From contig OY760074.1 in the NCBI GenBank assembly GCA_963663035.1, forward strand, positions 3,488,001-3,552,000: a stretch of DNA of 64,000 nucleotides. Direction: 5' to 3'. The notes beneath the pieces were generated by a model. It had not been told where the DNA came from. It saw only the letters and a program-made list of their open reading frames with translations, and ran no database searches. This DNA comes from Acidobacteriota bacterium (lineage in GTDB: Bacteria > Acidobacteriota > UBA6911 > RPQK01 > JADFOI01). Shown one piece after another: positions 52,543 to 57,659 of this stretch; the stretch's first letter is position 1; each line of letters opens with the position of its first letter. The position numbers and the translations under genes were made by a program.

Positions 52543-52608
52543 GGGAAGTAAGGGCGGTCGGGAGAATGTGGGAGTGGCCTCAGGCCGCGAAGAGGTGTCG
52601 AACATCAC

Positions 52609-53436
52609 TTATCCTCTTTTGATCTGCGTTCCCTCTTTCCCTCTCACTCCCTCCAACAACGCATTCTCCTTCAACCCACTCAAGATCTGTACTGAACCCA
52701 CTCCTCCCTCCAGGACCCTGAGTGCGGTCTGGACCTTGGGCACCATACCGTCAGTTAGACCTCCCTGGCTCAACAAATCCTTGGCCTCGGTGGCACTCAA
52801 CTCAGAAATACAGCTGGAGGCATCGTGAATGTCCCGGTAGATTCCCTCCACGTCTGAAACGGAAATCAGTTGGCTCGCCTGCAGGCTGATGGCCAGTTCA
52901 GCAGCCAGCGTGTCGGCATTGATGTTGAGGATTTGGCCGTCTTTGTCGGCACCCAGGCAGCTCACCACGGGAAGGAAGCCGCTGTCCCAGAATTGCTGCA
53001 AAACAGACGTGTCAATACTGTCAATCTCTCCCACCAGCCCAAAATCAATCAGCTCGGCATGCTCATGGCCGGAGGAGTCGGTGGTCGTAATCGAGAGAGG
53101 CGGCCTTCTGTGGCAGCAAGTCAGCCTGGCATCGAAGGCTGAGATTCCTAAGGCCGACAAACCCAAGGCAACCAGATCCGCAACCAGATTGCGATTCATG
53201 GCAGAGAAGACCATGGTGGCCAGCTCCAGCGTGGCCTTGTCGGTGACACGGCGCCCCTGATGCTGGACGATCGGTATCCCCAGACGGTTGGACAGATTGG
53301 TCAGCTGTTTTCCTCCGCCGTGGACAACGATCAAACGGTGACCGTCTCGGTCCAACTGGACCAGCTGTCGGCACAGGTGGCCTCGCGGTTTGTCCTCCTC
53401 CAAGACCTTTCCACTCAGCTTGACCACCAGGATCAT
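52609..53436 (-). CDS. argB: Acetylglutamate kinase
   Basis: VVKLSG, VVHGGG.Q, GRRVTD, NINADT.A, GMVPK. Confidence 0.92.
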   Translation of the reverse strand: MILVVKLSGKVLEEDKPRGHLCRQLVQLDRDGHRLIVVHGGGKQLTNLSNRLGIPIVQHQGRRVTDKATLELATMVFSAMNRNLVADLVALGLSALGISAFDARLTCCHRRPPLSITTTDSSGHEHAELIDFGLVGEIDSIDTSVLQQFWDSGFLPVVSCLGADKDGQILNINADTLAAELAISLQASQLISVSDVEGIYRDIHDASSCISELSATEAKDLLSQGGLTDGMVPKVQTALRVLEGGVGSVQILSGLKENALLEGVRGKEGTQIKRG

Positions 53437-54590
53437 ATGGTCTTGACGGCCTCCACAAAGAGATCGGCTTCACTTCGTTTCAGGACCAGAGGCGGCATCA
53501 GACGCAGGACCTGGGCATCCATTGAGGTCCCGGCCAGAATGTGCTTTTCGAGGAGCGCCCCCTGCAGTTCCTTGGCCGTCATTTTTTCACCCAATTTTAG
53601 ACCCAACAGAAGTCCCCGGCCCCGCACTTCCTCAACGTGGTCAATGCCGGCAAGAGCTTCCTTCAGATAGACGCCCATCAGGCTAGCGTGTTTGGCCAGC
53701 TCTTCCCTTTCGATGACCTCCAGCGTGGCTTCCATGGCGGCGCACCCCAGGGGGCCACCCCCAAACGTGCTGCCCAGGTCGCCGCTTCTGACCGTTCTGG
53801 CCAGCTTTTCGGTCACAAGCAGAGCACCCGCGGGAAAACCCGAGGCGATCCCTTTGGCTAAAGTCACCATGTCAGGATGAATCTTGAGGTGTCCGGAGAA
53901 GAGAAAGGATCCGGTTCGTGCCACTCCTGTTTGCACCTCATCAAAGATCAGGAGTGCTCCATGGTCTTGGCAGACCTCCTGGATCTGGCTCAGACAGTCC
54001 AGAGGGATCTCCTGCATTCCCCCCATGCTCTGAATCGGTTCGATCAGGACAGCTGCCGTTTTCTCAGAGACGGCAGCTGCCACTCCTGCTGCGGGCAGGA
54101 TCCGATGCATGGGCACCGGTGTGTTCAGGTAATCGAGATACTTGGGGATCCCGGTGCTGGAGAGACTGCCGTAGGTGCGACCATGAAAGGAGCCGGAGAG
54201 GGAAATGACTTCGCGGCGTCCAGTGGTGGCTCGCGCCAGCTTGATGGCGTTCTCATTGGCCTCGCTGCCAGAGGTGACCAGGAATGCCTGGTAGTAGGGT
54301 TCACCGGCCATCTCCAGCAACTTTTTCACCGCTCGCGCTCTAGCCCGGTTGTAGCTGACATTGGAGTAGAAAATCAGCTGGGCAGCCTGTTCTTGAATGG
54401 CTTGAACAACATGGGGATGGCAGTGACCTGTTGAGGCCACCGCATGAGCGCCGTAGAGATCAAGATATTGGGTTCCTTCCTGATCATAAACGTAGCACCC
54501 CTCACCTTTCTCGATGAAGAGAGGAAACTTGGCGTAGGTTTGCAGCTGATACCGGTCCTCGTAGCTCTTCAGGTCATCTACTGTCGTCAT
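53433..54590 (-). CDS. argD: Acetylornithine aminotransferase
   Basis: SGSEANE.AIK, FHGRT, FDEVQTG, LAKG, G.TFGG.PL; arg operon context. Confidence 0.9.
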   Translation of the reverse strand: MTTVDDLKSYEDRYQLQTYAKFPLFIEKGEGCYVYDQEGTQYLDLYGAHAVASTGHCHPHVVQAIQEQAAQLIFYSNVSYNRARARAVKKLLEMAGEPYYQAFLVTSGSEANENAIKLARATTGRREVISLSGSFHGRTYGSLSSTGIPKYLDYLNTPVPMHRILPAAGVAAAVSEKTAAVLIEPIQSMGGMQEIPLDCLSQIQEVCQDHGALLIFDEVQTGVARTGSFLFSGHLKIHPDMVTLAKGIASGFPAGALLVTEKLARTVRSGDLGSTFGGGPLGCAAMEATLEVIEREELAKHASLMGVYLKEALAGIDHVEEVRGRGLLLGLKLGEKMTAKELQGALLEKHILAGTSMDAQVLRLMPPLVLKRSEADLFVEAVKTI

Positions 54591-54639
54591 GGTTGGTCAC
54601 CGCTTTGCTGGATTCGTGCTTTCCTGCATTCGTGCACCC

Positions 54640-55650
54640 CTAAGGGTGCACGGGGGCTGTCTCCAGGCCTGTCTCCTCAGGAAAGTCGCAAATCAGGTTC
54701 ATATTTTGAACGGCCTGACCGGCGGCACCCTTTTGCAGATTATCCAACACCGACCAGACAATGAGAAAGCCATTTTGAGTTGCGGCGCCGATGTCTACGA
54801 AATTGGAGTGACGAACGAAGCTCACATTGGGAGATCCGGAGACCCAGCGAATAAAGAAATCTGAACCGTAGTAGGTTTCATACAGGTTGGCCACTTCCTC
54901 GGTGGTCACCGACTTGGCCAACTCCATGTAGTGGCTGGCGAAGATTCCACGCACGAACGGAGCCGAGTAGGTCTGAAAGATCAACGGGTAGTCGGGCTCA
55001 CCCAGGAGCTGTGTAATCTCGGGAAGATGCTGGTGCGCAAAAGGCTTGTAGGCGAACAGGCTGTTGGTGCGCCAGGGATGATGGGTGGTGGCGCCCGGAG
55101 AGTTTCCAGCTCCCGAGGAACCCGTTTTGGTATCGACGTAGACGGGTCCCTGGATCCACTTCTCCTGAAAAAGCGGATAGAGTGCCAGGAGTGTGGCACT
55201 GGCAAAGCAGCCTGGATTGGCAATGCGCCGAGCCGAGCGGATTTCTTCCCGCTTCAGTTCCGTGAGTCCGTAAACGAAGGCCTTCTGCTCCTCGGGGCAG
55301 TGGGGCGGAAAGCTGTAGAATTTCTCAAACACTTCGGGGTCTGCCAGCCGAAAATCACCGCTCAGATCGATGACCACCAGCTCGCCGGGCAGTTCCGGCA
55401 CCAGCTTCATCGCTTCCCCGTGGGGCAAAGCCAGAAACAGGACATCCAGCTGTGAAGCGGGCAGCTCCTCCAAAGGCGAGAAACGGAGCTTCAGCACCCC
55501 GCGCAAGTGTGGATAGACGCTTGCGACTTCTTTTCCGGCATGTTGTTGGGAGGAGATCCAAGCGATCGTGACATCGGGGTGACGCAGGAGAATTTGAATG
55601 AGCTCAATGCCTCCGTAGCCCGAACCGCCGGCTATTCCGATTTGAGCCAT
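54640..55650 (-). CDS. argC: N-acetyl-gamma-glutamyl-phosphate reductase
   Basis: GGSGYGG.EL, IDLSGDFRL, IANPGCF, HQHLPEI, DNL.KGAAGQAVQN.N. Confidence 0.95.
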   Translation of the reverse strand: MAQIGIAGGSGYGGIELIQILLRHPDVTIAWISSQQHAGKEVASVYPHLRGVLKLRFSPLEELPASQLDVLFLALPHGEAMKLVPELPGELVVIDLSGDFRLADPEVFEKFYSFPPHCPEEQKAFVYGLTELKREEIRSARRIANPGCFASATLLALYPLFQEKWIQGPVYVDTKTGSSGAGNSPGATTHHPWRTNSLFAYKPFAHQHLPEITQLLGEPDYPLIFQTYSAPFVRGIFASHYMELAKSVTTEEVANLYETYYGSDFFIRWVSGSPNVSFVRHSNFVDIGAATQNGFLIVWSVLDNLQKGAAGQAVQNMNLICDFPEETGLETAPVHP

Positions 55651-56717
55651 GGCATCAGAGTCTCTAGAACGAAAGTGCAGATCGTGCCCGTGCCTTCCCG
55701 AGAATTGCCTGCCGGAAGGTCCCAGTGTTCCTCAATGTAACGTATGCCTTCCCCACTGTCCGTGACAGGTCCTGAAATGAGAATCGGATACTTCCTGGGA
55801 CCTTGCTTGGACAACCACTCCATAGCTCCCCACACACCCATCAAGTCATTGGCGCACACGATCATCGATACGCAGCAGCTCATGAATTGTTCATCTTCAA
55901 AGAGGGAGGCAACCTGATAGCCTCCCAGGACTCCGTCACCCATCTCCAGAACAATGAAGTCAGGGTGGGACTCGGACAGATAGTGCACCATGGAGCGGGC
56001 GATGGGGACAACGGTTTCCAGATGGGCCGTGGAAGGTATGCCGAAGTCCTGAAAGCTCAGAATTTTTTGAGCGCCGTTTTCCTTCATGGCCAGAGGGTCT
56101 TTCAAGCAACCTACCCCGGCAACTTTTCCAGCGTTGATGGAAAACCCCTTATCAGTGAACATCTTCAGGAGTTGTTGGCAAACGGCGGTTTTCCCGGCGT
56201 TCATGCAGGTCCCCACAACCATGACTACCGGAACCTCCAGGATGGGCTTATCGACTAGAGCGAGAGCGAAGTCTTTCAGATTAGCAGCTCGGCCGTTCCA
56301 GGAAACGGTGCCCAGGTACTCCAGTTGGGTGGGCCATCCTAAATCGCGATGGAAATCCGTGCATTCTCCTATGACACCACCCCGATTGAGCAGGTGAAGC
56401 TCCATGCCTGCCTTGAGCTCAGAGGGAGGATCGCCTGAAAATCCTTGCAGGGCTTTGCGGCTTCCCAAGGCTCCAATGATCAATTCTCCTCCACTCAGAG
56501 TCTCCTCCTCCCCATCCAGTGTTTCCAGCTTCGAATAGTCGGTATTGACCTTCTTGACTTTTACCAGGACCAGGTCCCCGTGATGGGCGGTCTTCTCCTC
56601 TGTCACCCTGAGAAGTCCGGCAAGGGGAACTCGACTGGTCACGGAGGCGATCAGATCAGGTCTGACTCCTTCAGGCTTTGAGGCAGATGTGGGATCGACT
56701 AAGACTTTAACTTGCAT
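55632..56717 (-). CDS. DUF1611-like P-loop protein, first gene of the arg operon
   Basis: GTCMNAGKT, GKVAGVG...D, VLEMGDG, LLNRGGVIG; stop overlaps the argC start by 19 nt. Confidence 0.75.
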   Translation of the reverse strand: MQVKVLVDPTSASKPEGVRPDLIASVTSRVPLAGLLRVTEEKTAHHGDLVLVKVKKVNTDYSKLETLDGEEETLSGGELIIGALGSRKALQGFSGDPPSELKAGMELHLLNRGGVIGECTDFHRDLGWPTQLEYLGTVSWNGRAANLKDFALALVDKPILEVPVVMVVGTCMNAGKTAVCQQLLKMFTDKGFSINAGKVAGVGCLKDPLAMKENGAQKILSFQDFGIPSTAHLETVVPIARSMVHYLSESHPDFIVLEMGDGVLGGYQVASLFEDEQFMSCCVSMIVCANDLMGVWGAMEWLSKQGPRKYPILISGPVTDSGEGIRYIEEHWDLPAGNSREGTGTICTFVLETLMPWLKSE

Positions 56718-56745
56718 GGTTGACCTCGCTGAACGTTTCTTCCAG

Positions 56746-56781
56746 AGTGCATAATTATACATAGTTTAGTGAATATGTCAA
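56746..56781 (-). promoter_or_regulatory. Sigma70 promoter overlapped by an ArgR (ARG) box
   Basis: Minus-strand TTGACA (56781-76), 16 nt spacer, TATAAT (56759-54). Palindrome AGTGCATAATTATACATA (56746-63) fits the ARG box consensus TGMAT-W4-ATKCA with one mismatch. Confidence 0.8.
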
Positions 56782-56810
56782 GGATAAAGGTGTATAATCG
56801 CCTGAAATAT

Positions 56811-57659
56811 TCAGTGCGGGCGCCGCGACTTCAAGCGGACCACGCTGCCGTAGATCTCGCGCTTGGAGAGAGGGAGTTCTCGGGCGGCTCGCTGGATGGC
56901 TTCTTTTTGAGTGAGTCCTTCTACCTCCATCAGTCCTAAAACGTAGGCCGCTCCATCGACCTGAGGCGAAACCTCATTCTGTTGGGAGGTGCAACCTTCA
57001 AGAACCAGGGTATATTCACCCCGAGGACGTTCTTGCTCCAGAGTCTTGCGGACATCTTGGAGGAGACCGAAGTAGTGAGTTTCATGCAGCTTGGTCATTT
57101 CTCGGACCAGGAAAGATCTCCGATCACCCAGGATTTCCACAATCCTTTTGACGGTGGGAAGAAGACCATGCGGAGAGAGGTAAATCAGGAGGGTGGACTC
57201 CTCTCGGGAGAGTGTTTGCAGCAGTTCCCGTTGTGGGCCGGTTCGGCGGGGAAGGAAACCGACGAAGAGAAAGCGATGAGTCGGCAGACCCGAAATGGAG
57301 AGTGCGGCCGTGGCTGCCGAGGGGCCGGGAACGGAGTAGACGGCAATCTCCTTTTCTCGGCAGGAGACCACCAGGCGATGACCGGGATCGGAGAGAAGTG
57401 GAGTTCCGGCGTCCGAGACCAGCGCGAGGGCATGTCCCTGCTCGAGCTGGGTGATCAGAGCAGGGGTCTTGGCTGCTTCATTGTGCTCGTGGTAGCTGGT
57501 GGTTGCTGTGTGAATGGCGAAGTGGTTGAGAAGCTTGCGGGTGTGCCGGGTATCCTCACAGGCTATGAGGTCCACCTCGCCCAGGATCCGTACCGCACGC
57601 GGACTCAGATCCTCCAGATTTCCCAGCGGCGTGGCCACCACATATAGAATTCCCGACAT
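56811..57659 (-). CDS. rsmI: 16S rRNA C1402 2'-O-methyltransferase
   Basis: LYVVATPLGNLED, ACEDTRHT, VSDAGTP..SDPG, RE.TK.HE. Confidence 0.96.
   Translation of the reverse strand: MSGILYVVATPLGNLEDLSPRAVRILGEVDLIACEDTRHTRKLLNHFAIHTATTSYHEHNEAAKTPALITQLEQGHALALVSDAGTPLLSDPGHRLVVSCREKEIAVYSVPGPSAATAALSISGLPTHRFLFVGFLPRRTGPQRELLQTLSREESTLLIYLSPHGLLPTVKRIVEILGDRRSFLVREMTKLHETHYFGLLQDVRKTLEQERPRGEYTLVLEGCTSQQNEVSPQVDGAAYVLGLMEVEGLTQKEAIQRAARELPLSKREIYGSVVRLKSRRPH

Follow-up and report, generated by a model that had tools for sequence, protein, structure and literature searches.

The DNA considered here is a stretch of 64,000 nucleotides (the window) from an Acidobacteriota bacterium (GTDB lineage Bacteria; Acidobacteriota; UBA6911; RPQK01; JADFOI01), positions 3,488,001 to 3,552,000 of the forward strand of contig OY760074.1 in the GenBank assembly GCA_963663035.1. 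On its minus strand lies an operon for arginine synthesis in the order X-argC-argD-argB, headed by a gene, here called X, whose product is predicted to catalyze the first step of the pathway. The four genes, with positions given in the window, are:

55632 to 56717, minus strand: gene X, 361 amino acids; it is predicted to encode an N-acyl-L-glutamate synthase and belongs to an uncharacterised family of P-loop proteins with two domains.
54640 to 55650, minus strand: argC (TIGR01850, 366.1 bits, cut-off 233.6).
53433 to 54590, minus strand: argD, N-acylornithine aminotransferase (class-III aminotransferase, PF00202, E = 1e-97; TIGR00707, 347.7 bits, under the cut-off of 410).
52609 to 53436, minus strand: argB, N-acylglutamate kinase (TIGR00761, 203.3 bits, cut-off 151.3).

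There are overlaps of 19 nucleotides between X and argC and of 4 between argD and argB, and a gap of 49 nucleotides between argC and argD; this order and these overlaps, which a note made from the letters of the window (the original prediction) had described, are borne out by the coordinates of the open reading frames and by the model scores. The open reading frame of X spans 55632 to 56762 and offers two candidate ATG starts, at 56762 and at 56717. We prefer the ATG at 56717 because homologues share the same MQVKVL beginning, because GAGG lies 6 nucleotides 5' of it and because the ATG at 56762 falls within the -10 box of the promoter (see below); X thus likely starts at 56717, giving 361 amino acids.

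When compared with Pfam and NCBIfam, X had no match at E ≤ 0.01, and at E ≤ 10 only its P-loop gave faint matches (MobB, E = 0.068; DUF1611, E = 0.11), in agreement with the statement in the original prediction that X has neither a GNAT nor an ArgJ signature. None of the 146 homologues found in the first search has a Pfam domain, and where the source gave a name it was "hypothetical protein". When a profile was run against 1.84 billion cluster representatives (clusters at 50% identity), 2024 of them matched at E ≤ 0.001 and 607 still matched at E ≤ 1e-30. In the matches from four genomes of one family (G300, G141, G032 and G096; family f3) the reported open frame contains one TGA, which may sit in an upstream extension.

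The genome, one contig of 3,594,683 bases and 96.6% complete, lacks the usual enzymes of the first step. PF01960, the model for ArgJ, matched neither X nor anything else in the genome, in a search that was positive in 10 of 14 control genomes. The whole-genome search for ArgA (TIGR01890) matched only the kinase domain of ArgB itself, so that neither of the two genes whose presence elsewhere in the genome the original prediction had left to be checked was found. The short mycobacterial-type GNAT synthase (NF005921) and LysW (TIGR01206) had no match in the genome; PF04768 had none either, nor any in a control genome, and is uninformative.

Other genes of the pathway lie elsewhere in the genome. 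At 1,803,395 to 1,807,407, beyond the window, a further arginine operon reads argR-argG-argH-argF; its argF encodes a canonical ornithine carbamoyltransferase (OTC; 350 bits, cut-off 280.85), and the genome has no ArgF'. For ArgE no protein of the M20 family exceeds the curated cut-off (best 132.6 bits versus 297.7). The best candidate for a deacylase is an M20 hydrolase of the ArgE/DapE family with 369 amino acids (genome positions 1,702,669 to 1,703,775; loci L082/L104), which scores below all curated cut-offs. Among 16 loci its gene adjoins that of proline dehydrogenase six times, and in none of the 16 is there an arg gene within 1.5 kb; as an N-acylornithine deacylase it is a candidate on the ground of co-occurrence. 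Two steps of the pathway are thus without a recognised enzyme in this genome, the N-acylation of glutamate and the deacylation.

A scan with one genome per species gave 585 relatives of X, of which the best 80 loci were kept for neighbourhood counts. They come from Acidobacteriota, Planctomycetota, Chloroflexota, Sumerlaeota and others. Where 1300 nucleotides or more are available downstream of X (72 loci), argC follows X directly on the same strand in 69; among the best 80, argG is present in 65, argR in 52 and argH in 39. The co-location of X homologues with arg genes, for which the original prediction had suggested a test, is therefore real and reaches across phyla. In Pyrinomonadaceae and Blastocatellia the common layout is argR-argG-X-argC-argD-argF'-argB. 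In 39 loci argD and argB flank an ArgF'-like open reading frame; the two that were checked scored 455.9 and 359.9 bits with NF003384 (cut-off 288). Two loci of Planctomycetota (L052 and L079) read X-argC-argD-argF'-argB-M20-argH, the M20 protein being of the ArgE/DapE family. Since these operons hold genes for every other step, the N-acylation of glutamate alone is left for X.

On four contigs an X-like part is fused to an amino-acid-kinase domain of the ArgB/ArgA type (P0156, 626 amino acids). With X this part shares 38% identity, and all motifs are retained in it. The kinase domain has LKIADE in place of the VKLSGK of ArgB, and its glycine-rich phosphate loop may be lost; the regulatory kinase domain of ArgA is likewise without the glycine-rich phosphate loop. 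Among 7282 candidates no fused form of at least 633 amino acids was found, which is weak evidence.

The distribution of X was compared with that of ArgJ in 301 Acidobacteriota genomes at least 90% complete, a strong match to X being one with E < 1e-100. X was found in 80 genomes, ArgJ in 89, both in none and neither in 132; hence ArgJ is present in 0 of the 80 genomes with X as against 89 of the 221 others, counts in which related genomes are not independent of each other. Two families (f9 and f28), however, each hold genomes with X and genomes with ArgJ but never both in one genome, which points to repeated replacement despite the kinship among the genomes. The anti-correlation with argJ, for which the original prediction had likewise suggested a test, is thus complete in this sample.

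Eleven weaker matches were kept out of the X counts. Two are fragmentary (in G245 at the end of a contig, in G287 in pieces) and nine are paralogues. The weak X-like paralogues match at E = 1e-45 to 1e-56 and are not linked to arg genes, and in three genomes (G037, G145 and G228) they coexist with ArgJ. Four weak-match loci (L120 to L123, from G002, G089, G038 and G287) lie away from arg genes and encode proteins 27 to 31% identical to X; among them one copy forms part of a fusion with an ABC transporter (944 amino acids) and one stands beside a gene for an ATP-grasp protein of the YheC/D type. Another protein (P0265, 939 amino acids) combines an X-like part with a methyltransferase and a TauD dioxygenase. 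The sequences of these relatives suggest that the fold of X may have been reused for other amide-forming or acyl-transfer chemistry.

An AlphaFold (AF2) model of X (predicted local distance difference test, pLDDT, 90.4; predicted template-modelling score, pTM, 0.88) has two domains. These and a loop in the second are:

56244 to 56648, minus strand: N-terminal beta-rich domain, residues 24-158 (pLDDT 91.2 when modelled alone).
55635 to 56243, minus strand: C-terminal P-loop domain of the BioD/DUF1611 type (SIMIBI), residues ~159-361, from structural and hhalign matches.
56187 to 56213, minus strand: Walker-A-like loop GTCMNAGKT, residues 169-177, conserved and aligning with the P-loop of BioD.

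The fold search with the N-terminal domain gave a best Z of 3.2 and none of at least 5 among 48,161 chains, and the best Foldseek E was 0.41, a lack of matches to the model that does not show the fold to be new. For the C-terminal domain the best structural matches by VIA were 2g0t (DUF1611, Z = 15.8), 1a82 (BioD, 15.0), 2obn (DUF1611, 14.9) and 7xrj (DgcN, 14.8), and Foldseek aligned X with 7xrj at E = 1e-5. In profile-profile comparison by hhalign X matched DUF1611 with a probability of 82.8 (E = 9.4e-6, 180 columns; reference alignment of 12 sequences) and BioD with a probability of 44.4 (E = 2.3e-4, 159 columns; reference alignment of 6 sequences), both reference alignments being small. 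DUF1611 is thus the closer profile relative, while the structural Z scores are tied. When the profile was compared with the sequences of solved structures, the best match was the P-loop of a BioD (3fgn, E = 0.032) and no DUF1611 chain was listed. The Pfam model of DUF1611 (PF07755) matched X at E = 0.11 with 12.3 bits (cut-off 25) and over residues 176-208 only, and a genome search with PF07755 at E ≤ 1e-10 did not pick X up. The C-terminal domain of X is a remote homologue of that of DUF1611/DgcN; the hhalign match covers the C-terminal domains only, and the structure list of the N-terminal domain contains no DUF1611 chain. Of the term "DUF1611-like" used in the original prediction, the C-terminal half therefore stands, as remote homology; X is below the cut-off of PF07755, and these comparisons showed no relation of its N-terminal domain to DUF1611.

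The motifs on which that term was based, GTCMNAGKT, GKxxG and ExGDG, are present and conserved among the homologues. In the first of them G169, M172, G175 and K176 are invariant, and T170 and T177 occur in at least 90% of 42 sequences; the other two are contained in AGKVAGVG (with K198) and LEMGDG (258-262). The invariant residues of the C-terminal domain are G169, G175, K176, K198, D207, E258, D261, D291, T319 and D320, those of the N-terminal domain E65, R87 and N111, to which glycine-rich motifs are to be added.

That such a protein could start arginine synthesis is not a new idea, as the original prediction had warned might be the case. A 2026 GapMind preprint (10.1101/2024.10.14.618325) predicts that ACG33_RS14135 from Steroidobacter is an alternative N-succinylglutamate synthase, a prediction made there without an experiment on this protein. 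The grounds given there are that the hypothetical protein is nearly always encoded in arg operons beside argG, argC, argD, argF' and argB, that the family never occurs together with ArgA, that Foldseek finds a weak similarity to 7XRJ (1.4e-7) and that 70 neighbouring ArgF' have a residue other than glutamate at position 92. X and ACG33_RS14135 appear to belong to the same family, judged indirectly by the same slot in the operon and the same weak match to 7XRJ (E = 1e-5 here). The first-step assignment of X is thus a published prediction, reached independently in the preprint. Added here are a lineage without ArgF', a candidate for the deacylase, the fusion protein, an N-terminal domain without a detected structural relative and an alternative chemistry.

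We propose that X N-acylates L-glutamate, which would be the first committed step of arginine synthesis. By analogy with DgcN, acyl-CoA would most likely donate the acyl group, acetyl or succinyl, to the alpha-amino group of glutamate, the P-loop domain holding the nucleotide part of the donor and the N-terminal domain holding glutamate. The product would pass to the co-transcribed ArgB, ArgC and ArgD to give N-acylornithine, which would then be deacylated, probably by the M20 hydrolase at 1,702,669 to 1,703,775, and the ornithine formed would enter the reactions catalyzed by the enzymes of the argR-argG-argH-argF operon. A non-homologous replacement of the first step is the best reading because X is linked to arg genes, because it excludes ArgJ and because it is the only unassigned gene in otherwise full operons. 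That X acylates glutamate, whether from acyl-CoA or by an ATP-dependent reaction, is on these sequence comparisons quite probable; to the more specific proposal, an acyl-CoA-dependent N-acyltransferase acting on L-glutamate in place of ArgA or ArgJ, we assign by analogy with DgcN a probability of roughly 0.5. Transfer from acyl-CoA is the likelier chemistry because DUF1611 is the closer profile relative and because its one characterised member, DgcN, acylates glutamate. The replacement put forward in the original prediction is upheld by linkage, exclusion and elimination, that is by comparative genomics, and the acetyl group named there stays putative.

Several observations weigh against this proposal. 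The genome searches covered ArgA, ArgJ, NF005921, PF04768 and LysW, and a general GNAT protein could still be the synthase. Small GNAT genes do lie between argD and argF' in two X-bearing loci of Pyrinomonadaceae (L029, 11677 to 12192, and L036, 3375 to 3860), with weak similarity to models of amino-acid N-acetyltransferases (28.8 bits), so that X is not always the sole candidate acyltransferase. Three of the 72 loci (L035, L050 and L054) have no argC beside X, and 6 of 70 genomes with ArgF' lack a strong match to X. The 132 of 301 genomes with neither X nor ArgJ indicate that other unrecognised solutions exist. X has kept the lysine and threonine of Walker A and the acidic LEMGDG, as expected of an enzyme that uses a nucleoside triphosphate, and BioD fits the fold equally well (Z = 15.0 versus 15.8). 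The enzymatic activity of the whole family is, moreover, a prediction.

The retained P-loop leads to the first alternative, in which X is an ATP-dependent ligase like BioD and CobQ: it would phosphorylate the carboxylate of succinate or acetate, and the amino group of glutamate would attack the acyl phosphate without participation of acyl-CoA. The spacing of GTCMNAGKT is that of GTDTEVGKT in genuine BioDs, K198 aligns with the substrate-binding lysine of BioD, LEMGDG parallels the EGAGG of BioD, the best profile match among solved structures is the BioD 3fgn, and the Z scores are tied, as given above. The hhalign comparison nevertheless prefers DUF1611 over BioD in probability, E value and number of columns. 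Also, DUF1611 proteins share the P-loop, yet DgcN, the one characterised enzyme among the DUF1611 structures heading the fold list, was deposited as an N-acetyltransferase (7xrj) and is a D-glutamate acetyltransferase according to the GapMind preprint (10.1101/2024.10.14.618325). The ligase is therefore an unlikely alternative, albeit one to be taken seriously. Our literature search found no paper joining N-acetylglutamate synthase with DUF1611, or DgcN with D-glutamate and N-acetyltransferase; on DUF1611 and D-glutamate catabolism it found only unrelated papers and nothing on the mechanism.

Which acyl group is used was approached via ArgF' and the deacylase. Glutamate at position 92 of ArgF' marks acetyl specificity. 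Located with the help of two mutant chains of the enzyme from Xanthomonas, E92S and E92V, this position is occupied in 39 ArgF' encoded beside X homologues by threonine (38) or alanine (1) and never by glutamate. By their sequences these ArgF' agree with the succinyl inference in the preprint (10.1101/2024.10.14.618325), although threonine is not among the ArgF' substitutions that it cites as tested. Of the N-acetylglutamate proposed in the original prediction, the acyl-glutamate remains the best reading, and the acyl group may be succinyl in view of the 39 of 39 neighbouring ArgF' without glutamate, although the genome of the window has no ArgF' itself.

Among the 80 genomes with X, 64 have ArgF' and 16 have none. 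In the order to which the window belongs, all 13 genomes with X and without ArgF' (those of the 16 that are in both samples) encode an OTC of the canonical type together with an orthologue of the M20 hydrolase, and the 7 genomes with ArgF' but without OTC all lack the M20 orthologue; one genome (G108) has ArgF', OTC and M20 together. In the sample of 41 genomes of this order, which includes the unpublished genome G048, the M20 gene occurs in 26 of the 29 genomes whose OTC exceeds the cut-off as against 3 of the 12 others. From these gene contents the lineage of the window appears to run a linear pathway composed of X, ArgB, ArgC, ArgD, the M20 deacylase and an ordinary OTC. A special form of the ligase alternative would combine both lines: X as an ATP-dependent succinate (or acetate)-glutamate ligase that feeds a linear N-succinyl pathway, in which the M20 hydrolase removes succinate from N-succinylornithine before the canonical OTC acts. 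We know of no description of such a route and consider this combination more doubtful than the ligase as such.

In the next alternative X acts at the other acyl step. It would deacylate N-acylornithine or N-acylcitrulline, or, in the manner of ArgJ, return the acyl group to glutamate, and the first intermediate would come from a GNAT that is not recognised as such. In favor of this are the lack of an ArgE above the cut-off in the genome (132.6 versus 297.7 bits), the lack of an M20 orthologue in the 7 genomes of the same order that have ArgF' only, and the lack of ArgE also in Steroidobacter, as stated in the GapMind preprint (10.1101/2024.10.14.618325). The operons of L052 and L079, however, carry X and an M20 protein of the ArgE/DapE family together, and the 13 genomes without ArgF' have, besides X, both OTC and the M20 orthologue. 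The fusion of X to a kinase domain, furthermore, suits the start of the pathway, and to our knowledge the P-loop fold is not that of any amidohydrolase. All this makes a role of X in deacylation improbable.

The N-terminal BioD-like domain of Pta is regulatory, and SIMIBI P-loop accessory NTPases (UreG, HypB, MeaB and MinD) appear in the fold list with Z = 11-14, which would fit a non-catalytic X that serves the arg enzymes, in dependence on a nucleotide, as a regulator, as a chaperone or as the scaffold of a metabolon; this is just as hard to believe, because the first step would stay without an enzyme in hundreds of genomes, because the strict exclusion of ArgJ (0 of 80) fits the replacement of an enzyme and not an accessory factor, and because the top structural matches are enzymes.

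Upstream of X the following elements were found:

56754 to 56781, minus strand: promoter of the sigma-70 type, TTGACA-16-TATAAT, 12/12 match to the consensus.
56748 to 56761, minus strand: ARG-box-like palindrome TGTATAATTATGCA, 12/14 match to TGAATwwwwATTCA, overlapping the -10 box.

Both had been seen in the original prediction, and the scores confirm them. Perfect TTGACA/TATAAT sites with a spacer of 16-18 occur 6 times in the 3.59-Mb genome versus about 0.6 expected from its composition. For the ARG box we scored sites against TGAATwwwwATTCA, which we take to be the consensus, and found 45 sites of at least 12/14 in the whole genome. A second of these, TGTATATTTATACA, lies in the 144-nucleotide gap directly upstream of the gene for an ArgR homologue (116.4 bits, under the cut-off of 130.45). 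Since 2 of the 45 good boxes in the genome fall in both arg promoters, control of the X operon by ArgR is plausible from the sequence, and the boxes before argR and before X suggest autoregulation of argR and a regulon that may be common to both operons. Classical ArgR operators are tandem pairs of ARG boxes; the scoring, which covered sites of at least 12/14, gave a single site in the X promoter. Among the three nearest relatives whose upstream region was examined, one (L004) has the identical 14-mer TGTATAATTATGCA and the other two (L002 and L003) have no ARG box of at least 12/14 upstream of X. The ArgR control asserted in the original prediction may thus be retained in a weakened form: a box stands in both arg promoters and an ArgR homologue is present, but there is one box in each, only one of the three closest relatives shares it and the homologue scores below its cut-off.

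In metatranscriptome contigs from two runs exact matches were found to 234 nucleotides within X (55826 to 56059) and to 247 nucleotides over the start of argC (55422 to 55668). Carry-over of DNA is possible, and the match at 55422 to 55668 contains fewer than 31 nucleotides of X-only sequence, so that transcription is not counted as proven. DNA near-identical to positions 52600 to 56850 of the window (95-98% of sampled words) is present in runs of four host-labelled organisms, and about half of the sampled words are present in marine sediment, seawater and marine metagenomes.

In at least several hundred bacterial species (585 species genomes, 607 clusters) no enzyme is assigned to the first step of arginine synthesis. 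With relatives of X so widespread, there is a false gap in the metabolic models and predictions of auxotrophy for Acidobacteriota, Planctomycetota, Chloroflexota and others. If our proposal is true, X would be a third, unrelated solution to the N-acylation of glutamate besides the GNAT and the ArgJ enzymes, and a family that no Pfam model covers would gain a function. The lineage of the window, being without ArgF', would be a test case for whether the X family is tied to succinyl chemistry or to acyl protection generally.

With ArgA and ArgJ the protein X shares the proposed reaction and the slot in the pathway; it differs in having neither the fold nor a sequence signal of GNAT or ArgJ. The architecture of ArgA, a kinase domain with an acyltransferase, is echoed by the fusion protein P0156, in which the order of the domains is reversed. 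BioD resembles X in the spacing of the P-loop, the lysine after strand 2, the E-G-x-G motif and the structural score (Z = 15.0); it differs in being a single-domain protein, and the genome has a BioD of its own (2,610,186 to 2,610,680), the one match to the bioD model TIGR00347, which does not pick up X. DgcN and the other DUF1611 proteins (PF07755; 7XRJ, 2G0T and 2OBN) are, like X, two-domain proteins of about 350 amino acids whose P-loop lies near residue 160 and whose C-terminal domain is homologous to that of X, and DgcN also acylates glutamate, its substrate, however, being D-glutamate and its role catabolic; true DUF1611 genes coexist with X in four genomes (G108, G085, G097 and G023). 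There is also a likeness to the family of ACG33_RS14135 as described in the preprint (10.1101/2024.10.14.618325): X is likewise embedded in arg operons (69 of 72) and likewise does not occur with a usual synthase (0 of 80 with ArgJ). The difference is that the argument for succinyl rests there on the neighboring ArgF', in place of which the genome of the window has a canonical OTC and an M20 hydrolase.

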